From NCBI GenBank assembly GCA_050084515.1, contig CM114271.1:46562001-46626000 (forward strand): a DNA stretch of 64,000 nucleotides. Direction: 5' to 3'. A program made the translations under genes and the position numbers. Numbering within the stretch: the stretch's first letter is position 1; each line of letters opens with the position of its first letter. Positions 49,310 to 64,000 of the stretch are shown here, one piece after another. This stretch comes from Blasia pusilla (taxonomy: Eukaryota). The notes below the pieces were generated by a model. It saw nothing but the letters and a program-made list of their open reading frames with translations. It was not told where the DNA came from and made no database searches.

Positions 49310-50034
49310 AAAAATGCACTTTCTTATAGAAAAAAAGTCTCAAAAAGGATAAAGGAAGGCAACAACATGCCAAGAAGAGAATGAGTCAAGAAACATAAAA
49401 AGAAATTTGCAAGAAGCCATCACAAAAACCAACTCAATGAGCTACATAATGAATAACTTGAAACAAATCTCACAGAAACATTAGACGTTTACATGGATGG
49501 TCAAACAAAAATGGATGACAAGATTAGTGGCTACCAACCACTTCCGCTCGATGTGTCAAATCCAATGCTTGTGCACGTTGTAATGCCACCAGGATATATT
49601 GTCAAAAATAAGTAGTGACTATGGAGAGAGAAGGATTACGATAAGGGACGAGTTGATGATTCTTGAGGAACTAGTGAGCACATCTTTTGAAGAGATAATC
49701 AAAAGACACATATAAGTGCCCAAAAAAATCTACTATGAAAGGAATAAATCCATCGGTAATATGTCTCACCACATAACTCCTTGATTCTTGTTGATGTATT
49801 GGCCACAATAACTTTAGTATATACATCCTGACACACCACATCATAAAATATTCACTTAGCAAACCATCACATCACCCAATAGATGAAAGTCACCTTGGGA
49901 CATAACAAGATAAACTCATTCACAAGAGGTTGCTTGTGTAGTAGAAGGTAGGACGTGTAGTTACTCTTGCCCAACGATATACCTTGTTGTAGGAGCCATC
50001 AATAATATTTCCTCTCTAATCACATTGTGGGTTT
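49310..50034 (-). mobile_element. Degenerate 3' end of a second CRE-like element, interrupted by the gypsy insertion
   Basis: Collinear with 14165-14885 (e.g. gaggttgcttgtgt.gt.gaaggtaggac.tg.agtt.ctcttgcccaacg). Similarity stops at the TGTCAT start of the gypsy element. Confidence 0.8.
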
Positions 50035-50400
50035 TGTCATGACCATACGGATTATGTCGTAGAGTATGGTGTGCTAGTAGAGGCCATTCCTTATGTAGGA
50101 CCATAGTGGCTTGGTAGAAATGCGGTTCCATACATAGGGTTGGGGGTTACTCAGTTGGGGGTGACTTTCCCAGTAGGGCCCGCTCTTAGGTTGGAGGATA
50201 TAAGGTGGAGTGCACTCAAAAAATCGATTCTTTGAGTTGAGCCTTTATGCGTTGGGAGTTAGCCTTGGTAGTGAGTAGAGCTCTTGGCTATGGTGTTTCC
50301 CGCAAGCTTCGACCTAGATTCTCCCATCGTGGAGTGGGTTTGGCTCGATTGTATGTGATTGTATATGTGTTTTATGACAGTACGTCTTTCACGGATTTCA
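50035..50400 (+). repeat. 5' terminal repeat A1 (TG...CA, 366 bp) with TATA box
   Basis: TGTCATGACC...ATTTCA; TATAA at 50199-50203; homologous to 53559-53926 (-) and 63938-64000. Confidence 0.9.
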
Positions 50401-52226
50401 CTCAAAGAACTGCAGTTGATCGATGGTAGCTTCGATTGTAGATCAGTAGGATTTGGTTAGGGCTGATTGTGTACTCAACCGTGGATGTTCGTGGCTTGTG
50501 GCCTATGTTGGAGGTGTGAATCTGGTGCGTGGTTGGTTGGGAAAGAAGCGCCTTGCTGAGAGCTTTCCAACGCGCTTTAGATCGCCGGATTTCGTCAAGG
50601 GAGTTGGAAGTTATCAAGGATTGAAGATTCTGGTTCGTGTTCGACGGTTTTCTGATGTGGAGAACTTGGAGTGCGGAAGCTCTATTGAAGTTCATCCAGA
50701 TCGGGTGAGAGGTTCCTGCTGCTACTTGTATTGTGATCTCATGTGAATCTATCTGCTCGAGTGTGTGGAGCGTTGCGGATTTCTGCGTGCATGAAACTTG
50801 GCGGAAGCGCTGTCGGATTTACGATTCTGGAGGTGTATGGACAGCAAGTTTGTCTGATTTTTAGCTCGGAGTACAGAGCTCGGTTGTAGCTGATTTTTTG
50901 TGGAGAGATAGCTATGGTGGTCAATTGAATTTTGGTTGAAATATATTTGATTTCAATCACGGATTTGTGAAGTAATTTCTGATCGAAATTTCACGGACTA
51001 GCTCAAGGTCTGGCTATGGTGGACAGCGGATCGGAGGGGCTGGTTGGTTGGTGACTCGTTCATTGTTGGAGACGCCTATCCCGTTGGAGGCGCCCTGGTT
51101 GAGCCTCGAGCCATGTCTCGGAGTTTTGAGGCTTCGAGGCTTCGAGGCAACTCGTGGTAGCTCGGGGCGAGTGGGCGTGAGAGGCGGAGTAAGGAGCAAG
51201 GAGCAAGGAGCAAGCAAGCAAGTTCAACTGGAGTTTTATGGCCCTGACCAGGATCACTTTGAGTGGAAATCCGTTATAGGTGGTTTGAATTAATATTTTT
51301 GCAAACGGCACGTAGCAGGTTTTATACTTGCTTGCTTGGGCGTGAAGCAATTTTTGCAGGATTTGGGATTTGAGTTTTGCATAACTGGTCACCCATCTTT
51401 GGGCTATTCTACCTAGAGGACGCTTAACTGTTGGGTTCTTAACTATGCCAGTGTACACACTGTTGTAGCTCATTTGGTGTTGTTCGGAGATGTGTTAGGC
51501 ACTTTATGCATCTCAGGTTTTTGGTTGATGTACCTCTAGCGCATAGTACGGTGTAGCCTCTCCATACAGGTGATATTTTCAGGTGCTGTGAGTTCGACTA
51601 GCACGTCATCGACCCGCGGCGGAGTAGCTATTGCGTTAGAATTGTGTGGTGGGTTTTGTGGATTCAGGGGGCACCACCTTTGGTGGATTATGTTACCTTG
51701 AATTCCATTTGCGATTGGAGGGTTGTCGTTGGACTTCCTGTGTTTGGATCCCCTCCATCGGTGCTTCTTGCTAGCGCGCCCATTGTTAGGGTAGACGCTG
51801 ATTTCCAGAGTAGTGTTACTCCTGTGTGCTACTGATAGTGAGGCTGGAGTGATGACGAGTAGACCGTGGGAGGCTTCTTGTGGTGATGAGAGGTTAGGTT
51901 GCCTACACCCATAGCTAGTAGAGCTACACTAGTAGAGCGACATCGACGTCACTTGGTAATTTGGTGGTGGTGCGGCATCGGCATTGGTCATCACGGAGTT
52001 GTCGGGTGGTCTGGTTGGGGACCGTGGTGCGGACAGTGGTGGTTTCACACGGAGTGGATTTAGGTATCGGCTACCTTTTCCACTTCCGACGGTTGATGAA
52101 GAGGAGGACGAGGGTGTTCCAAACACCGAGTCTTCTACGTTGTTATCGAGTGTTGCAGCTCCATTGATTTGGGACATGGACGGTGGATATGGAGCCATGA
52201 AGGGCCCACGATGATACTCGGGTGCA

Positions 52227-53452
52227 GTGGGCACCATTGAGTTGGAGGACTTCATGCAGGAGTTTGATACGTGGTGTGATATGCAGATGTTGCGGAACGC
52301 CACGTTGTTTACATCCTTCTTGGCTTGGAAGGGGTTGTTTCAGCACTTGGAAGGACCACCCATGGATGATTACCATGAGTTTAGGAAGGACCATGTTGCT
52401 GAGATTGAGGCATGGAGACAATATTGGTCTCCAGGCTATGTGTCTATCACCCATGGTGGTATTGGTAGTAGTGCTCCTACTATGCCAGCCAGCCCGACGT
52501 TGAGTGGTACGAGTACGAGCCGGAGTGGGGGTACCAATGGAGGTACTAGTGGGGGTACTAGTGGAGGTTCTAGTGCCCCACTATCGTTCAGCCCGGTTGC
52601 AGAGTTCTTCAAGAGGTTGAAGAAGAACTATCAGGGAGTGAAGACGGAGAAGTTGAGGAATCTTTAGGACTTTGAGCGAAAGACTGGTGAGAGTCTTCGT
52701 GAGGCATACATTCGTATCACGCTGATTTCGATTACCAAGGTGTGCGAGGATCGAGGCGATCCATTTTTGGTATGGGATCTTGGAGAGAGATTTGCGCCGC
52801 AGGGTACGTGATGCTACTCTTATGAGTGATGATTCACCCACATTGACCCATGTATTTGCTTTATCTGAGAAGATTGAGCTTAACATGATGAAGGAGAGAG
52901 TGGTGACATCCGCATTCAGTAGGGATACAACTACTACTTCTCGTGTTCAGCCGCCCACCTCACAGTCTCGTAGTAGTGGTGGTGGTAGTAGTAGTGGGAG
53001 TCGTGGGGGGTACACACGACCTCAGTCAAGTCCTAGAGGGACACTTGCGCAGAGACCATTGCCTTCATTTGCTGCCCCGCAGCAGGGCGATCATGTTGGA
53101 CATGTGGAGGTGATCATGTTAGGAAGTTTTGTCCCCAAGAGGATGGGAGACGGACTTTGGAGGATGGGCCTCAGTCGGCCCCAACTAAGTGTGATGATTG
53201 TGGGAGACCAGGTCATCCTCGAGAGCGTTGCTTTGATCTTCATCCAGAGTTGAGATCAGGCCGCGGCCGTGGTGGAGTAGCTCTGAGAGGCCGAGGTGGT
53301 AGAGGTGGTAGGGGTGGACCAATGGTTGGAGAGCCTACGGTGGCTACCCCTACCACTACGACAGAGTCAGCTATGGCTACCAGGATTGAGCAGTTGGAGC
53401 AGAAGTTGGCTACTATGGCTGGTATCCAGCATAGATCAGGTTCGGGAGCAGG
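52227..53452 (+). pseudogene. gag with two zinc knuckles (frameshifted, truncated by the nested insertion)
   Basis: Capsid-like ELEDFMQEFDTWCDMQ...FFKRLKKNY; knuckles CWTCGGDHVRKFC (~53094) and CDDCGRPGHPRERC (~53190); RGG-rich tail. Confidence 0.8.
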
Positions 53453-56400
53453 TGTCGTGCGAATCCACATCGTCATACAACATACATCGCTGACATACCA
53501 TACGCACATACATACATAACATAGACGAGAGTATCCACAAAGGCAAGTGTACCACAATTGAAATGCGTGAAAGACCTACTGTCATAAAACACGTTTACAA
53601 TCACATACAATCGAGCAAAGCCCACTCCACGATGGGAGAATCTAGGTCGAAGCTTGCGGGAAACACCATAGCCAAGAGCTCTACTCACTACCAAGGCTAA
53701 CTCCCAAGCATAGCAGGCTCAACTCAAAGAATGATGTTCTTTGAGGGCAAGCCACCTTATATCCTCCAACCTAAGAGCGGGCCCTACTAGGAAAGTCACC
53801 CCCAAGTGAGTAACCCCCAACCCTATGTATGGAACCACATCTCTACCAAGCCACTACGGTCCTACATAAGGAATGGCCTCTACCAAAGACACCATACTCT
53901 ACGACATAATCCGTATGGTCATGGCGGTGTCGTGCGAATCCACATCGTCATACAACATACATCGCTGACATACCATACGCACATACATACATAACATAGA
54001 CGAGAGTATCCACAAACGCAAGTGTACCACAACTCGCCCCCCTAACTGGCGGTTAGGTCCCTCTAACTCCCAGGTAGCCCTATACATCTACTACATGCTA
54101 TACACCTTCTTGGGTGCCCGAATCAGAAGGCCGGGTGCTAGGTTGCCCCATCGTTAGTCGCACATCGTAATCCATATCATGCAAAGATCAAGTCATCTAC
54201 CTCTCCTAAGTACATCGAGGACAAACCCACCTTCCAGTAGGAACAACATCCAAACGTGGAGTCAAACACATCATGTGCCAACCCCTAGAACACCGATCAC
54301 ACACCAACATACGGGTTGCGTTACCAGCAGACCCACACAACATGCACCTCAAGCTAGCACGTATCATGGCTAAGCTTGGGTCAACAATACCATCCACATT
54401 TGGAAGATGACATGGCGCACAATTACGCACATGGTCCTTCCAAACAACTCCATCACGACCCTCCAACATGAGAACTCGAAGCTAACACCTCACACACTCG
54501 TAAAATAGTGCGGCTGCCATCACATCCAACGTTGTCGGGCAATCTGCTGCAAATAGACATAGTCCCCACATGGAACCTACTGAATCGATGGTAGATAACC
54601 TCCACTCGAATGGTTGCATACCGCAACGTATCCTGTGTTGAGCAATGGCAAGATTCTCAAAGGTTGTTGGCATAACTCTCCGAAGAGCTCCGCCCCGAGA
54701 ACACACCCTCATCCACATCTCGGGTCATCAAGGTTCACCACCTCACTAGACTCGACAATTCTTTCTTTGGCAAGTCAAGATCTCGACCGTATAACAGAAA
54801 ATAAGGTGAGAAGGAAGCCAAGGATGCTTGGCGATCGAACCTATATCCCATGGCTAACCATGGCAAGCTCGAATATCCTGTCTCCAAGATGCCCTTCAGA
54901 GGCCATACTTGCGCAATGCCCTCTTCACCGTCGAACCACATGCTCAGCCAAACCATCCGCCTCTGGATGATCTCGAGGCGTGGTCCGATGATCAATCAAC
55001 GCCTTGTCACACAAGACATGAAACTCACCTGAAACTCAGACCCTGGTCGGTCAAGACACTTCAGTGGTGCACCAAAATGACTAAGCACTCTATCCAAACG
55101 CATACGCCGTTCCTCACTTGCCTTGTCCGGTAATGCCACCAACTCAATCCACTTGGAGAAGTGCTCCACCATCACCAACACATATCGATGATGTAAATGC
55201 GGTGAACGGTAACGGTCCCGCAAAGTCCACACTCCAACGGTAACCCAACCCCATAATAGGCAAGGGGTGTAATTGTGGTGTAGGGGCATTAAATGATGCC
55301 CTCACCGGTCACAAACCATACAACGTGACACGAATGCTGCACCTGAGTATGCATGCCACGCCACCAATCTTGGCCAAGGAGTAAGCTATACGCACGCTTT
55401 ACCCCAAAATGTCCCAACTCCTCATGGACATGTCGCACAATCGCTCTCTCTCGAGCCAAATGTGGCACTACTCGTACTCTACCATCCTCCCACACGCGGA
55501 GAATATGTGTTCCCTCAATCGATACCTCTTAGCACGTTGAAGAACACGGTCTCGCTCCTTGGCACTCACTATGCCTGGCACCCTCTTTGGTCCGTAGGAA
55601 CTCCAACACCAACGCATCATCATGAATATCACGCTGATCCGTACCACCATCTCCAACCTTAGGATCTGAAGGCTGGCCGTCTACCCTCTGACTAGAGTAA
55701 GATATCATGTGGTCCTCCATACTAGAGTCCACCCCTAACCAACATAAAAAGGCGGATGCATGCCAACCTGGCACCATCTCCTCATCAACCTCGCCATGCC
55801 ATCTAGCCCCAGTTGTATCCTCTTGGCTAGTACATGGGTTCCTACTCAACCCATCAACATCAAGGTTGGCAACTCCAGGTCTATGTACCACCTGGAAGTC
55901 ATACTCCTGTAAGATAAGAGCCCACCGTGCAAGCTTCCTTGTAAGCTTGTCCGACTCCATCAACCACTTGAGCGGCCGGTGATCAGTAACAAGGGTAAAC
56001 TGTGTGCCAAACAAGTAACACCTAAAGTGTGCCACAGCCCACACTATTGCCAAGCACTCTCCCTCATATGAACTATAGCGCGACTCCGCTGCATTATTCG
56101 AACGACTTGCATAGGCCACCACAAACTCCATGTGCTCATCATCATATTGTGTCAACACCGCTCCAAGTCCCAACCTACTCCAATCAGTGTGTAACTGGAA
56201 TGGGCGCCCTCTGATAGGTCTCCTCAAGATAGGCGCCGCCACCAACTGGGCCTTAAGCTCCACAAAAGCTCTCTCTTGATCATCTCCCCAGTGCCACTCT
56301 TGATATGATTTCAGCAATTGGTTCAAAGGCTTTGCCATAGCACTAAATCCCTTCACATACCTCCGATAGTAGTTCGCCAATCCCATGAATGCTCGAACTC

Positions 56401-59400
56401 TACTCACATCTACCGGACGCGGAATAAGTGCAATAGCCTCCACCTTTGCTTGCTGAACTCCCAAACCACCTGGATAGATCACATAACCCAAGTACTCAAC
56501 ATCCTCATGGAAGAACTTACACTTTCCTGGATGCAAACGTAGACCATGAGCTTTCAACCGCTCAAACACCATCTGCAAATGTATTTGATGCTCCTCCACC
56601 GTGTTACTGAACACCAAGATATCATCAATGTAACACCGAACAAAATCCAACCCTGCTAGGATCCTGTCCATCACTCTTTGAAACTCGGAAGGTGCATTCT
56701 TCAACCCAAAGGGTAAGAATTTCCACTGGTACAAACAATCCTTGCCATGAGAGTTGACATCCCAAAATCGTTGTCTTGGCCTTGTCACTCTCCCGAATCG
56801 GCAATTGATGGTATCCTGCCCGAAGATCCAAAGTACTGAAAATCTTTGCCTGTCCCACCACATCAAAGATCTCCTCAGGTGTAGGCATGGCATACCTATC
56901 GGCCTTGGTTTGCCGATTGATAGGACGGTAATCTCCACACATCCGCCTATCCGTGTAGTTGCCATGCATATCCTTTTTAGCAGGCATGATAGTGGTTGAT
57001 GCATACTCTCCATGCGACAACTCCACTAATCCAGCCTCCAAAAGGTCCAACGTCCTACTCTGAATCAAGTCCCTCTCCATATCACTATATCGGTAGGGAC
57101 GACAGAAGATTGGCGTATCACTAGCCAAATCAATCCGTATACCGGGTCCAACCAGAGAACCCAACTCCTTCATGCTAAAGGCAAAACAACTCCTATAAGC
57201 ACGTAGGAGGCTGTGTCAGCGTCGTTTCTCACCTCCCGTAGCTTGGGCCCAAGTAATGGCTCCCAAGTCTCCTCCTTTGGCACACTAGAGGGAGAGGCGA
57301 TGCCATTGTCTGCTCATAACCCCCTCACAAGATGGTACACCCTTAGCTACACCATCATCCGAGCAAATAACTCCTCCACCAAAGCATGAGCAACCAACTC
57401 CACATGCCCACCATTACATCCCATCTACTCCAAGGATGCAAAATACTACTCTCCTCTTGACCGATGCCTCTACCGTCCCGGTAGCCATCGAGCTCATTAC
57501 AAGGGGTGGAAGACCCATGACATAGTCCGAAGTCGATTTGCTCGGCCATACCAAGACTCAAAATCCAAGTCAAACAATTCAGGTCCATGGCGACCCAACA
57601 CATGACGTCGTGAAGCCTCGAAATAGAAGCAACATTTGTCACACCGATGCAAATCCCATCGCACGCTCTCTCTCATCAGCGTTAGGCTCCACCAATTGTC
57701 GCACATGAGAATCCCATACAAGCCCCCAGGACCACCTTCCTGTAGGCATGTGACGAGGAAAACTCACAAATGTGGGTAGTGCCATCTAGGGGTGGCCCAC
57801 ACGGTTCACCTTGCCATGGGTGACCGATCAATAACCCTCACCACTTGAGAAAGTCGCCCAAGATATCAAGATACTATCCATTGTAAGGCGAGATCATTGC
57901 CTTTGCATCATATGCTCGACGTAGAACCTCCCTAGGCAACAAGTTTGTCCACCACAAGCGTGGGCGATGTGCACGTGAGCCAACTCGCATTGCATCCAAC
58001 AACACCGCTGGTCCAATCCAAGACCGCACCTCATGAACACTCGCCATCATCCGGGTCCGAGTGTCACCCAACAATGGAACATTCTCCAAAATGCTAAGCT
58101 AGAGCACGCGCTTGCGATGAACATTGAAGATGTCGTAACACCCGTAACATCTCCCAAAACAATCGAGCTAGGGTCATGTAATCCCTCACCACGACCAAAG
58201 ACGTGTATGACATCTCGACATGGCCATCCGATGCAAATCACCAAATCCACAGGACCAACCTCTCAAGGTCCTGCGCTCAACAATGCAATGTGTGATGGTA
58301 AAGCATCGGTACCCACGAATAGCTAATGGCGGCAACAATGGGGGGATACCTCCATCAAGCGACCAATATGTGGATGAGACTCTCGGTGGGCGACCGTCTC
58401 ATCTCGCTCCACATACACGTATATCCCTAAGAGGAATACCGGCTGCAACATGGATGCATTACCAAACGTGCTGATCCCACCAAAGAGATCTAACACACAA
58501 ATTGCCCTATGTTGGCGAGTGGGATCTTGCCATACAATGGGTGTAGTATCCAAAGGGGATAACCCAATAGAGTCTTGTTAGGAGTCCGTGGGGTCTCCTC
58601 TTTGATGGGGAAAGCGGCATGACCTCACACCAAGCCTCTGCACTAGGCTTGAGCCTTGCCCATTCTAGATTCAAACATCAAAGTGGCACATCCAACGATG
58701 AGGATGCCAATTCTGCAAAAATAGGGACCTCCTCTACCTCCTCATGAGGAGAATCCATAGCAGAAACATAACCCTCCAAAAGTCTCTGGCCAAGTGACTA
58801 CTCCACTAAAACCACCCGTATGATGCTAACATTGTTGGGGAAGACCCTCCTAGTCGAGCCCCCAAATAAATCTCAGATGGAACTTGGCTCATACGTCCAT
58901 CCCCGGATTGCCAACCAGGTCTGTAAGACGTTGTCTCGATTTATTTAATCCATCTGAAAACCCATCGGGTCTTCTCCTCCAACTAGTACATCATACGACT
59001 GGTTTTAGTGGATGTGACTCACTTGGCAGATATTCCCAAGGGAGCTTTCGCGTCGCATGATTGGTCTCAATGAGGTACAAAAAACTTCTCCCTATCATGA
59101 ATTGAGATCTATCATTGGCTCCTCCAAGTGATGTTTGAATCTAGAATGGGCAAGGCTCAAGTTCGCCCTCGAATACCCCAAACCAATACATGCCGCCTTG
59201 CCCAACATCAAGGGCTGCGCTCCTGAGTCTAACAAGACTCTATCCGGTCTATACACTGCCTTGTAGGACTCACCAATCGGAAGATCCCACTCCGGTTGTC
59301 CAACATACATACACCAGGTGTAAGCCTTCACGATCAATGGTTGGCCGTCGATGTAATGCATCCATCTTCGCGGTATTCTGCCTGCCGGAAGTAACGTGGT

Positions 59401-59735
59401 ACTCAATGCTACACGAGATAGAGGGTCGCTCACCGCAACATCCTCATCCACCTCAACACGTGAGCAAGAATACACCCCCATGTTCACACAACCGCTATTA
59501 GCTGAAATGGGTACCAGGAGCTAAGTCAACTCCTAAAGCCATCACATTGCATTGAAAAAATGGGGGGAACACCGGTTGCCATCCGTCATCTGATGGATTT
59601 GCATCCGTGTCTACTGGACACCAATGTAGATGCCTCGGTCCCCCCGTCTGCCGGCTCAATAGGTGAGGAACCATGGATGGAGTCCTTGTTTTGGACAACA
59701 AGAATGACGGGAAGCGACATCTCGAGGTTCAATAC
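53453..59735 (-). mobile_element. Nested inverted copy of the same family (5'-truncated): PR, DNMT, RT, RH, INT, PHD, B1-A2-B2
   Basis: Protease VLLDSGAQ (~59230); DNMT 57550-58510; RT YIDD; RH DWS...EGECLA; INT; PHD 54209-54345. PPT 54032-54045, B1 53928-54031, A2 53559-53926, B2 53453-53556. Its repeat variants differ from those of the outer copy. Confidence 0.85.
57550..58510 (-). pseudogene. C5 DNA cytosine methyltransferase domain within the gypsy pol (frameshifted)
   Basis: Motifs in canonical order: I VLDLFGGIS, IV DLVICIGWPC...GEGLHDPSS, VI ENVP, VIII DAMRVGSRAHRPRLWWTNL, IX-X EPNADERER.MGF / RRHVLG..MDLNCLTWIL. Confidence 0.85.
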
Positions 59736-59749
59736 CGTGCTCTAGCTTA

Positions 59750-60300
59750 CATTTTGGATAATGTTCCATTGTTGGGTGACACTCGGACCGGATGATGGCG
59801 AGTGTTCATGAGGTGCGGTCTTGGATTGGACCAGCGGTGTTGTTGGATGCAACGCGAGTTGGCTCAGCGTGCACATCGCCCACGCTTGTGGTGGACAAAC
59901 TTGTTGCCTAGGGAGGTTCTCGTCGAGCATATGATGCAAAGGGCGGGATCTCGCCTTACAATGGATAGTATCTTGGATCTTGGGCGACTTTCTCAAGTGG
60001 TGAGGGTTATTGATCGGTCACCCATGGCGGTGGTGAACGTGTGTGGGCGGCCTACGATGGCACTACCCACATTTGTGAGTTTTCCTCGTCACATGCCTAC
60101 AGGGAAGGTGGTCAGGGCTTGTATGGGATTCTCATGTGCGACAATTGGTGGAGCCTAACGCTGATGAGAGAGAGCGTGCGATGGGATTTGCTCGGTGGTG
60201 TGACAGCGGTTGCTTCTATTTTACGAGGCTTCACGACGTCATGTGTTGGGTCAGGCCATGGACCTGGAATTGTTTGACTTGGATTTTGAGTCTTGGTATG
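59750..60300 (+). pseudogene. C-terminal half of the DNMT domain in the outer copy
   Basis: DNVPLLGD, RAHRPRLWWTNL, EPNADERERAMGF and HVLGQAMDL fragments across frameshifts. Confidence 0.8.
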
Positions 60301-60540
60301 GCGAGCGTCGACTTCGGACTATGTCGTGGGTCTTCCACCCCTTGTAATGAGCTCGATGGCTACCGGGGACGGTAGAGGCATCGGTGGGGCGCAGGAGAGT
60401 AGTATTTTGCATCCTTGGAGTAGATGGGATGTAATGGTGGGCATGTGGAGTTGGTTGCTCATGTTGGTGGAGGAGTTATTTGCTCAGATGATGGTGTAGC
60501 TAAGGGTGTACCATCTTGTGAGGGGGTTGCGTAGCAGCCA

Positions 60541-63500
60541 ATGGCATCGTCCTCTCCCTCTAGTGTGCCAGTGGAGGAGACTTGGGAGCCATTACTTGGG
60601 CCCAAGCTTACGGGAGGTGAGAAACGACGCTTGACACAGTTCCTACGTGCTTATAGGAGTTGTTTTGCCTTTAGCATGAAGGAGTTGGGTTCTCTGGTTG
60701 GACCCGGTATACGGATTGATTTGGCTAGTGATACGCCAATCTTCCGTCGTCCCTACCGATATAGTGATATGGAGAGGGACTTGATTCAGAGTAGGACGTT
60801 GGACCTTTTGGAGGCTGGATTAGTGGAGTTGTCGCATGGAGAGTATGCATCAACCACTATCATGCCTGCTAAAAAGGATATGCATGGCAACTACACGGAT
60901 AGGCGGATGTGTGGAGATTACCGTCCTATCAATCGGCAAACCAAGGCCGATAGGTATGCCATGCCTACACCTGAGGAGATCTTTGATGTGGTGGGACAGG
61001 CAAAGATTTTCAGTACTTTGGATCTTCGAGCAGGATACCATCAATTGCCGATTCGGGAGAGTGACAAGGCCAAGACAAAGACATTTTGGGGTGTCAACTC
61101 TCATGGCAAGGATTGTTTGTACCAGTGGAAATTCTTACCCTTTGGGTTGAAGAATGCACCTTCCGAGTTTCAAAGAGTGATGGACAGGATCCTAGCAGGG
61201 TTGGATTTTGTTCGGTGTTACATTGATGATATCTTGGTGTTCAGTAACACGGTGGAGGAGCATCAAATACATTTGCAGATGGTGTTTGAGCGGTTGAAAG
61301 CTCATGGTCTACGTTTGCATCCAGGAAAGTGTAAGTTCTTCCATGAGGATGTTGAGTACTTGGGTTATGTGATCTATCCAGGTGGTTTGGGAGTTCAGCA
61401 AGCAAAGGTGGAGGCTATTGCACTTATTCCGCGTCCGGTAGATGTGAGTAGAGTTCGAGCATTCATGGGATTGGCGAACTACTATCGGAGGTATGTGAAG
61501 GGATTTAGTGCTATGGCAAAGCCTTTGAACCAATTGCTGAAATCATATCAAGAGTGGCACTGGGGAGATGATCAAGAGAGAGCTTTTGTGGAGCTTAAGG
61601 CCCAGTTGGTGGCGGCGCCTATCTTGAGGAGACCTATCGAGGGCGCCCATTCGATTACACACCGATTGGAGTAGGTTGGGACTTGGAGCGGTGTTGACAC
61701 AATATGATGATGAGCACATGGAGTTTGTGGTGGCCTATGCAAGTCGTTCGAATAATGCAAATGGAGTCGCGCTATAGTTCATATGAGGGAGAGTGCTTGG
61801 CAATAGTGTGGGTGTGGGCACACTTTAGGTGTTACTTGTTTGGCACACAGTTTACCCTTGTGTTGATCACCGCCGCTCAAGTGGTTGATGGAGTCGGACA
61901 AGCTTACAAGGAAGCTTGCACGGTGGGCTCTTATCTTACAGGAGTATGACTTCCAGGTGGTACATAGACCTGGAGTTGCCAACCTTGATGTTGATGGGTT
62001 GAGTAGGAACCCATGTACTAGCCAAGAGGATACAACTGGGGCTAGATGGCATGGCGAGGTTGATGAGGAGATGGTGCCAGGTTGGCATGCATCCGCCTTT
62101 TATGTTGGTTAGGGGTGGACTCTAGTATGGAGGACCACATGATATCTTACTCTAGTCAGAGGGTAGACGGCCAGCCTTCAGATCCTAAGGTTGGAGATGG
62201 TGGTACGGATCAGCGTGATATTCATGATGATGCGTTGGTGTTGGAGTTCCTACGGACCAGTAGGGTGCCAGGCATAGTGAGTGCCAAGGAGCGAGACCGT
62301 GTTCTTCAACGTGCTAAGAGGTATCGATTGGAGGGAACACATATTCTCCGCGTGTGGGAGGATGGTAGAGTACGAGTAGTGCCACATTTGGCTCGGAGAG
62401 AGCGATTGTGACAGCGACATGTCCATGAGGAGTTGGGACATTTTGGGGTAAAGCGTACGTATAGCTTACTCCTTGGCCAGATTGGTGGCGTGGCATGCAT
62501 ACTCAGGTGCAGCAGATTAGTGTCACGTTGTATGGTTTGTGACCGGGTGAGGGCATCATTTAATGCCCCTACACCACAATTACACACCCTTGCCTATTAT
62601 GGGGTTGGGTTACCGTTGGAGTGTGGACTTTGCGGGACCGTTACGTTCAGCATGCGACATCATCGATATGTGTTGGTGATGGTGGAGCACTTCTCCAAGT
62701 GGATTGAGTTGGTGGCATTACCGGACAAGGCAAGTGAGGGAACGGCGTATGCGTTTCTGGATAGAGTGCTTAGTCATTTTGGTGCACCAGCTGAAGTGCT
62801 GACCGACCAGGGTACAGAGTTTCAGGGTGAGTTTCAGGTCTTGAGTGACAAGGCGTTGATTGATCATCGGACCACGTCTCGAGATCATCCAGGGGCGGAT
62901 GGTTTGGCTGAGCGTGTGGTTCAGACGGTGAAGAGGGCATTGCGCAAGTATGGCCTCTGAAGCGGCATCTTGGAGACAGGATGTTCAGTTGCCATGGTTA
63001 GCCATGGGGTATAGGTTCAGTCGCCAAGCATCCTTGGCTTCCTTCTCACCTTATTTTCTGTTATATGGTCGAGATCCTGACTTGCCAGCAGCAATTCGTC
63101 AGGAGTCTAGTGAGGTGGTGAACCTTGATGACCCAGAGATGTGGATGAGGGTTTGTTCTCAGCGGGCGGAGCTCTTCCGGAGAGTTATGCCAACAACCTT
63201 TGAGAATCTTGCCATTGCTCAACACAGGGATACGTTGCGGTATGCAACCATTCGAGGTGGAGGTTATCGACCATCGATTCGTAGGTTCCATGTGGAGAAC
63301 TATGTCTATTTGCAGCAGATTGCACCGACAACGTTGGATGTGACGGCAGGCCGCACTATTTTACGAGTGCGCGAGGTGTTAGCTTCTGGAGTTCTCATGT
63401 TGGAGGGTTGTGATGGAGTTGTTTGGAAGGACCATGTGCGTAATTGTGCGCCATGTCATCTTCCAAATGTGGATGGTACTGTTGACCCAAGCTTAGCCAT

Positions 63501-63660
63501 GATACGTGCTAGCTTGAGGTGCATGTTGTGTGCATCTGCTGGTAACGCAGCCCGTATGTTGGTGTGTGATCGGTGTTCTAGGGGTTGGCACATGATGTGT
63601 TTGACTCCACGTTTGGATGTTGTTCCTACTGGAAGGTGGGTTTGTCCTCGATGTACTTAG
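60541..63660 (+). pseudogene. pol: RT, RNase H, integrase and PHD finger (several frameshifts)
   Basis: RMCGDYRPIN, FSTLDLRAGYHQ, LPFGLKNAP, YIDD; RH EGECLAIVW; HHCC zinc region (HEELGHFG...CMVC); catalytic core VEHFSKW, LTDQGTEF, GLAER; terminal C4HC3 PHD CMLC...CDRC..GWHMMC...WVCPRC. Confidence 0.93.
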
Positions 63661-64000
63661 GAGAGGTAGATGACTTGATCTTTGCATGATATGGATTACG
63701 GATGTGCGACTAACGATGGGGCAACCTAGCACCCGGCCTTCGATTCGGGCACCCAAGAAGGTGTATAGCATGTAGTAGATGTATAGGGCTACAGGAGTTA
63801 GAGGGACCTAACCGCTTGATTAGGGGGCGAGTTGTGGTTTTGTGTGTTTGTGGATACTCTCGTCTATGTTATGTATGTATGTGAGTATGGTATGTCAACG
63901 ATGTATGTTGTATGACGATGTGGATTCGCACGACATTTGTCATGACCATACGGATTATGTCGTAGAGTATGGTGTGCTAGTAGAGGCCATTCCTTATGTA

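Follow-up and report, generated by a model that had tools for sequence, protein, structure and literature searches.

A Ty3/gypsy-type retrotransposon family of Blasia pusilla with split terminal repeats and integrase-type insertion ends

How does a retrotransposon with a DDE-type integrase come to carry split terminal repeats of the order A1-internal-B1-A2-B2, a layout known from tyrosine-recombinase elements? The question is raised by a stretch of 64,000 nucleotides (nt) of Blasia pusilla DNA (contig CM114271.1 of assembly GCA_050084515.1, positions 46,562,001-46,626,000), called the window here; coordinates below are window positions. The window holds two copies of one retrotransposon family, a plus-strand copy (X) and an inverted copy (Y) nested in the gag of X. 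In this family the enzymes are as in gypsy elements and the layout is as in PAT/Ngaro elements, and it is a land-plant representative of a barely characterised kind.

The layout is built from two repeat units, A and B. A1 of X (50035-50400) is 93% identical over 367 nt to an inverted A at 53923-53559 (E 6.5e-154). Unit B, of 107 nt, has two direct occurrences on the minus strand (54031-53928 and 53556-53453, 99% alike, spacing 475) and one on the plus strand (63833-63935, 98%). The 3' end of Y reads purine tract, T, B (TGTGG...CACGACA), a short spacer, A (...TTTCA), AT, B and then unrelated sequence. The 3' end of X reads purine tract, T, B, TT and A (TGTCATG...), where the window ends. The units meet in two kinds of joint, a B-to-A joint (CACGACA-tt-TGTCATG at 63929-63944) and an A-to-B joint (TTTCA-at-TGTGG at 53563-53552). 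Upstream of A1 of X no B was found, the local score against B being 10 and the shuffle mean 10.2.

Raw reads show that the junctions of this layout are shared by the family. Two whole-genome shotgun runs (X23 and X24) and two Logan contig sets were mapped onto 53151-54350 at 90% likeness; read counts are given for X23, with X24 in brackets. At the start of A, 535 (556) reads exit into unrelated AT-rich host flank (agreement 0.38-0.39), and the depth of reads coming through from B is 520 (581). At the end of A, 536 (545) reads exit into one consensus (agreement 0.94), which is the leader that follows A1 in X, and the depth continuing into B is 614 (641). At the end of B, 431 (461) reads exit into low-agreement sequence, the flank. 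A is thus preceded by host flank or by B and followed by the leader or by B, and only rarely does it close the element; B is followed by A or itself forms the edge. Loose ends of these same classes appear, in small numbers, in contigs of X2, which is an earlier run from another study. These counts do not by themselves separate A-internal-B-A-B from A-B-A-internal-B. Together with the metagenome copies described next, they confirm that the split-repeat layout is real and family-wide and no peculiarity of the window locus.

Independent copies define the ends of the element. Joint Genome Institute (JGI) metagenome contigs were scanned with a peptide covering the integrase C-terminus and PHD finger of X, which matched 334 stretches; 295 of these were confirmed relatives, and the best 80 (58-86% identity) form our locus set, L001-L080. 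The loci are plant DNA from host-associated samples, and some are covered by several contigs. A scan of viral contigs with the integrase C-terminus/PHD peptide gave no match. At three loci (L015, L024 and L057) a single contig holds the whole element A1-internal-B1-A2-B2. Six further two-ended copies run from A1 to a polypurine tract (PPT) and B, followed directly by flank. In eight of the nine two-ended copies thus obtained, TGTCATG and CACGACA are immediately flanked by a perfect 4-bp duplication (TCTC, AAGG, CATA, TGTT, ACTA, TACA, TGTG and ATTA were seen), and the ninth agrees at 3 of 4 positions. In all nine the right-hand duplication adjoins B. Perfect 4-bp duplications at TG...CA ends argue for insertion of the DDE-integrase type, and they show that the element is integrated by the start of A (TGTCATG) on one side and the end of B (CACGACA) on the other.

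The 5' end is equally uniform. Among 14 5' ends with 12 distinct flanks, X included, A runs straight into the leader every time, and none has B-like sequence within the 160 nt upstream, where scores are at shuffle level. The element is accordingly not bounded by two identical direct long terminal repeats (LTRs): its 5' end is A and its 3' end is B-A-B or B. We also considered whether the 5' LTR of X had once been B+A and had lost B through microhomology, TTGTGGG standing before A1. This was ruled out by the shuffle-level scores upstream of the 14 5' ends and by the A-start reads, which enter unrelated flank (agreement 0.38). Diverged sublineages (L077-L080, ~58% amino acid identity, and L044, 72%) also end PPT-B-A-B, with B ending in ACA and A starting with T(G/A)TCA. 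A first-pass annotation of the window had given the coordinates of the repeats, the A1-internal-B1-A2-B2 layout and the termini TGTCATG...CACGACA. The coordinates and layout hold in repeat searches, direct reading of the sequence, reads and metagenome copies, and the termini are borne out by the target duplications. It had also named a majority of intact copies with a full 5' LTR or without B1 as a finding that would speak against the layout; the outcome favours the layout, B being absent from all 14 5' ends and following the PPT wherever both are annotated.

The enzymes are those of a gypsy element. Pfam searches found RVT_1, RT_RNaseH, rve and Integrase_H2C2 in this order on both X and Y, which is the Ty3/gypsy order of Pol, and the alignment with relatives is colinear (tblastn). 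TG...CA ends with a short target duplication, a putative primer-binding site (PBS) after the 5' repeat and a putative PPT before the 3' repeat are likewise as in gypsy elements. The family is of Ty3/gypsy type, with gag, protease, a decayed stretch resembling a DNA methyltransferase (DNMT), reverse transcriptase (RT), RNase H, integrase and a C-terminal PHD finger. The first-pass annotation had reported an rve integrase and no tyrosine recombinase. Both points stand: the rve domain is accompanied by a zinc domain, and no tyrosine recombinase domain was found by Pfam in 20 open reading frames (ORFs), which include leader ORFs of five related copies and come from copies that are all decayed. The Pfam domain lists of the 120 nearest long relatives contain no recombinase either. 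In the 1.8-kb leader, 10 ORFs yielded no extra ORF product or recombinase and no Pfam match at E <= 0.01; two of the 10 had weak gag-like matches (E 0.04-0.06).

Protein comparison links the family with elements of other green organisms. Closest are proteins of Marchantia polymorpha (79% and 74% identity) that carry a DNMT domain. Relatives were also found in Closterium, Klebsormidium, Haematococcus and Tetraselmis; most have the order RT, RNase H, integrase, PHD, and many also have a C5 DNA methyltransferase domain. A PHD-bearing retrotransposon protein of K. nitens (P0112) is 48% identical over RT and RNase H. The Marchantia protein P0002, with its DNMT domain (PF00145) at amino acids 460-529, is colinear with Y from protease to RNase H. 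Window 57562-59268 (minus strand) is 34-36% identical to the part of P0002 that holds PF00145; it has many stops, and Pfam matched nothing in the single open piece that was scanned. Together with 59715-60285 (plus strand), it shows 34-49% amino acid identity to the DNMT-carrying part of Marchantia retrotransposon proteins. On the strength of this DNMT-homologous stretch, which lies between protease and RT, the family would be grouped with streptophyte gypsy elements that bear a DNMT, and it appears to belong to the same DNMT/PHD-bearing group as the Klebsormidium element discussed below.

Where, then, would reverse transcription begin and end? A purine tract directly precedes B1 in X, in Y and in every locus in which both are annotated, with one or two changed bases in a few of them. 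At the other end of the element, A1 is followed immediately by 11 conserved nt, which we take to be unlike the complement of a tRNA 3' end. The reverse complement of these 11 nt has a constant position within A, ~171 nt before the end of A and ~30 nt after TATAAA/TATAAG. The match covers 9-11 of the 11 nt at 11 of the 14 5' ends; of the remaining three, two carry A1 deletions. Chance recurrence of a 9-mer in such repeats is ~0.1% (332/4^9). Self-priming is predicted for the Tcn1 clade of mosses and clubmosses in the portion of Neumann et al. (2019, PMC6317226) consulted here. With a PPT before B1 and a putative self-priming site after A1, reverse transcription should give an LTR of B+A, which agrees with the proposal that the first-pass annotation had drawn from the PPT and PBS positions. 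In such an LTR, U3 would consist of B and the first ~166 nt of A, and R-U5 of the rest of A.

Two observations concern the primer-site motif. A short hairpin in A (50210-50236 and the homologous sites of the loci) repeats this motif in its left arm, and its right arm corresponds to the predicted 5' end of the RNA. In L001 (1168-1798), L009 (3246-3878) and L011 (1297-1929), PPT-B-A is followed by the primer-site motif and then by the inverted first ~180 nt of A; this arrangement is a fold-back joined at a short hairpin motif common to A and the primer site.

The two joints carry different signatures. The B-to-A joint is an imperfect palindrome, CACGACA-NN-TGTCATG, and its halves are exactly the ends that adjoin the target duplications. 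Its 2-nt spacer varies (GC, AC, AT, TT, GT) between conserved halves. The A-to-B joint consists of the end of A, then G or A, then TTGTGG. G is the majority base, seen on the plus strand as T>C at 53558 in 492 of 614 X23 reads. In its G form the joint carries AGTTGTGG, which is identical to the PPT/B1 boundary, as expected if the U5 end had been joined to the U3 start. Most A-to-B joints are precise. At L015/L017 the joint contains an insertion, made up of a second copy of part of the A end and then the final 4 nt of the PPT, and at L052/L053 and L058 there is apparently one extra nucleotide. The two B units are 99% alike in the young copy Y, whereas A of Y and A of X differ by 7%. It follows from this near-identity that B2 is made anew with each insertion and is not an inherited relic. 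In L015, L024 and L057, B1 and B2 are 91-94% alike and A1 and A2 86-92%. A separate observation at L052 (1725-2557) and L053 (1579-2411) is that ~830 nt, including a tandemly repeated stretch, stand between A2 and B2; this looks like a later insertion at the A-to-B joint.

The explanation that we favour overall, with a confidence that only slightly exceeds our doubt, is that this gypsy family integrates through U5-U3-joined complementary DNA (cDNA) cut at the internal B-to-A palindrome. Transcription would start inside A, ~30 nt downstream of the TATA box. The first ~11 nt of the RNA would pair with the site after A1 and prime the minus strand, as in Tf1, and the purine tract before B1 would prime the plus strand. 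The product would be a linear cDNA with a B+A LTR at each end, (B+A)-internal-(B+A), whose own ends (B start and A end) would not be the integrated ones. The two integrase recognition ends would lie back to back inside the LTR, as the CA-NN-TG palindrome of the B-to-A joint. Since the product A-internal-B-A-B requires a substrate in which A is joined to B, the integration substrate would carry a U5-U3 joint (A end to B start). It could be a 2-LTR circle, or an end-extended cDNA in which the plus strand runs on from the right cDNA end onto the left end. Integrase would then cut both strands at the palindrome of the PBS-side LTR, giving A-internal-B-A-B. A-internal-B would result if integrase cut both internal sites of plain linear cDNA or made a single cut in a 1-LTR circle, and also from later recombination between B1 and B2. 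A broader version holds that a green-lineage clade has its integrase ends inside the LTR, so that plain linear cDNA is a dead end and integration necessarily proceeds via U5-U3-joined cDNA. We put this forward tentatively and stop somewhat short of believing it.

Several findings weigh against integration through U5-U3-joined cDNA. The A-internal-B form is at least as common as A-internal-B-A-B. Counted by distinct flank, 19 3' ends are B only and 12 are B-A-B, with one discordant cluster; 17 loci with incomplete B1 or a contig end, and loci without annotated PPT-B, were dropped from this count. Read depth at the start of the PPT-side B is 1253 (1337) vs 527-614 (568-641) at the start of the A-side B, a rough comparison because clipped-read counts are set beside depths. 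The approximately twofold depth on the PPT side suggests that roughly half of the 3' ends carry A2-B2. No 5' end among the 14 shows A-B-A-internal-B, which a random cut of a symmetric 2-LTR circle predicts equally often. Its absence suggests that the choice of site is directed, or that the joint arises at the right end alone. The primer-site complement in X is just 9 nt long. All copies are decayed, with a longest frame of 498 amino acids in the window and 467 in the loci, and no intact polyprotein was found in the 80 loci. What is said here of transcription start, polyadenylation site, cDNA ends and circles is deduced from sequence. The metagenome contigs are short-read assemblies, but the state of the 3' end is concordant in 13 of the 14 flank clusters covered by more than one contig. 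It is therefore a property of the locus, and collapse during assembly is an unlikely source of the B-only 3' ends.

The discordant cluster bears on how the B-only form arises. Its members, L042 (B-A-B) and L068 (B only), have flanks that are 95% and interiors that are 90% alike and represent one old shared insertion, from which A-B was lost in one lineage; B1xB2 recombination thus does occur. The B-only class could be fed both by primary products and by later B1xB2 deletions. An element of the A-internal-B form would be unable to regenerate the promoter half of A.

Other explanations have to be weighed against these data. The joint between A2 and B2 might form without a ligated circle, if RT switched at the end of the plus strand from the A end onto the left B start and recopied B. 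Integrase would then pair the left B-to-A site with the new right-most one, giving A-internal-B-A-B, or with the middle one, giving A-internal-B. Such template switching accounts for exactly the two forms seen and for gain at the right end alone, no 5' end being A-B-A; most joints are precise, and the insertion at L015/L017 resembles the trace of a template switch. Ligated 2-LTR circles show such joint features too, and integrase must still cut 100-340 nt inside the DNA ends. Template switching is our second choice, unlikely but to be taken seriously. Alternatively, the true LTR might be A alone, with the plus strand starting at the B-to-A boundary, B1 a 3' untranslated end and B2 the result of some other quirk of replication. 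A1 and A2 do flank the internal region as ordinary LTRs would, TG...CA bounds A and the primer site adjoins A1. The conserved purine tract, however, stands before B and not before A, and the end of B is not purine-rich. The cDNA would also end at the A end, which leaves no source for B2. The right target duplication adjoins B in all nine two-ended copies, and reads that leave the A end for anything other than the leader are at most a small minority (agreement 0.94). An LTR of A alone is thus improbable.

The layout by itself would suggest a tyrosine recombinase, encoded by the element or supplied in trans, acting on a circle, as it is described for PAT/Ngaro/DIRS elements in the text of PMC5890265 that concerns such repeats. 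The insertions speak otherwise, with perfect 4-bp duplications in eight of nine copies and TG...CA ends. The family has an rve integrase with its zinc domain, and neither the 20 ORFs nor the domain lists of the 120 relatives contain a recombinase; this reading is very improbable. Tyrosine-recombinase elements, to our knowledge, lack integrase-type target duplications. We give practically no credence to the layout being a local accident (a nested insertion or unequal recombination) or an assembly artefact. The window locus is indeed rearranged, as Y is nested in X and a deletion took the 5' part of Y and the middle of X. Each junction class nevertheless occurs hundreds of times in the raw reads of two runs, and the same layout is found at 12 distinct metagenome loci, the diverged sublineages included.

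The first-pass annotation had treated this layout on an integrase element as unknown, which was overstated. The legend of Fig. 4c in de Mendoza et al. (2018, PMC5890265) describes DIRS-like repeats on KnitGypsy-Dnmt3 of Klebsormidium nitens, an element with Gypsy-type domains and a DNMT inside Pol. This was the only report of the split-repeat layout with integrase elements that our literature search found, and the search found no published mechanism. What that paper says of the element in words, figures and supplements aside, includes no target duplications, PBS/PPT positions or mechanism for KnitGypsy-Dnmt3. The present family resembles KnitGypsy-Dnmt3, by description and not by sequence comparison, in its DIRS-type repeats and Gypsy-type domains; unlike it, as far as that text describes it, the family belongs to the land-plant lineage and its DNMT stretch is decayed.

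Comparison with better-known systems shows which parts are shared. Formally, A1-internal-B1-A2-B2 corresponds to a circle that holds B-A twice in tandem and is cut at a single B-to-A joint, as in PAT-like, Ngaro and DIRS elements; the present family differs in its DDE integrase, TG...CA ends, 4-bp target duplications and the lack of any recombinase found. With Tf1/sushi and Tcn1 elements, as treated in the consulted portion of PMC6317226, it shares the lack of a tRNA-type primer site, and it may share a priming site after the 5' repeat, complementary to the predicted RNA 5' end. It departs from them in having a PHD finger in place of the C-terminal chromodomain, split repeats and an extra DNMT-like stretch. 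The integrases of spumavirus and HIV-1 cleave the palindromic junction of 2-LTR circles, according to the passages on this reaction in PMC1180852, PMC1905944 and PMC4372172. There, as would be the case here, a palindrome of the CA-NN-TG type is cut on both strands to give linear DNA with processed ends. In retroviruses the palindrome is the U5/U3 joint and the route is minor or disputed, whereas in the present family it lies inside the LTR, so that this route or an equivalent would be obligatory.

Our analysis extends the earlier description in four respects: integrase-type insertion at the B/A ends, landmarks for the PPT and for self-priming, the make-up of the A-to-B joint, and a second form of the 3' end that lacks the repeat A2-B2. 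A one-line remark in the literature thereby becomes a set of testable features: a 4-bp duplication for each insertion, TG...CA at the B-to-A joint, a PPT before B, a self-priming site after A and a U5/U3 joint between A2 and B2. Both the textbook model and programs that look for LTRs presume two identical LTRs, and a family such as this one would be missed or misfiled as DIRS-like. The layout uncouples the ends of reverse transcription from the ends used by integrase, which makes it a natural system for studying the use of an internal palindrome on circular or end-joined cDNA. If a route through the U5-U3 joint is indeed obligatory, it would be a natural version of the circle-junction route long debated for retroviruses, and it would imply a convergent origin of split repeats like those of tyrosine-recombinase elements.

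The features of X and Y are collected in Table 1. The interruption of the X gag coincides exactly with the B2 end of Y. At 53452, 575 (589) reads switch to one common continuation (agreement 0.97), namely the gag sequence that other copies carry unbroken. Y has no gag, leader or A1 of its own; missing from X are the remainder of gag, the protease and a portion of the DNMT-like stretch. A single deletion spanning the inner junction of the nested insertion would account for the gaps of both copies.

Table 1. Features of copies X and Y in the window.
Feature	Position	Strand	Evidence
Host flank GTTT, predicted target-site duplication copy of X; partner beyond window	50031-50034	+	4-bp duplications of related copies
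A1 of X, 5' terminal repeat, TGTCATG start, TTTCA end	50035-50400	+	Repeat search, sequence reading
TATAAG within A1 of X	50199-50204	+	
Primer-site complement within A1 of X	50228-50236	+	
Putative self-priming PBS, adjoining A1	50401-50411	+	9-nt complement inside A1
Long X leader (1.8 kb), without recognised domain (no match in 2 window ORFs or in leader ORFs of related copies)	50401-52214	+	Pfam
X gag, two CX2CX4HX4C knuckles, broken at 53452 by Y insertion	52215-53452	+	Translations, reads
B2 of Y, 3' terminal repeat unit; CACGACA end at 53453 against X gag	53453-53556	-	
A-to-B joint spacer of Y, 2 nt, AT	53557-53558	-	Sequence reading, reads
A2 of Y	53559-53925	-	93% to A1
B-to-A joint spacer of Y, 1 nt shorter than in X	53926-53927	-	Sequence reading
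B1 of Y	53928-54031	-	99% to B2
PPT of Y	54033-54043	-	Sequence reading
Y internal part	54044-59735	-	Pfam, ORFs, colinear tblastn with Marchantia proteins
PHD and integrase of Y	about 54200-55300	-	
RT-RNaseH ORF of Y, 498 amino acids	55529-57025	-	
DNMT-like stretch of Y	57562-59268	-	
Protease motif of Y	within ORF 59095-59520	-	
X internal 3' part	59736-63821	+	Pfam, repeat searches
RT of X	60535-61674	+	
Integrase of X	62412-62960	+	
PHD finger of X (PF00628, 8e-11)	63520-63654	+	Pfam
PPT of X	63822-63831	+	Sequence reading
B1 of X	63833-63935	+	
B-to-A joint spacer TT of X	63936-63937	+	
A2 start of X, cut off by window end	63938-64000	+	100% to A1 over 63 nt

Three further observations were made at the locus. 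A perfect 33-nt inverted repeat (58648-58680 and 59129-59161) lies in the unique centre between two long inverted arms. In the PPT region, ~600-690 reads per run match the 37 nt of 54034-54070 alone; to either side they diverge into two further consensus sequences, each well defined (agreement 0.90-0.93). Another abundant repeat family has these 37 nt, and nothing more, in common with the gypsy element. Differences between reads and window over 53151-54350 are mostly C>T and G>A (37 and 42 of the 143 places listed by kind in X23), a pattern that deamination of methylated cytosines would be expected to leave in old repeats.

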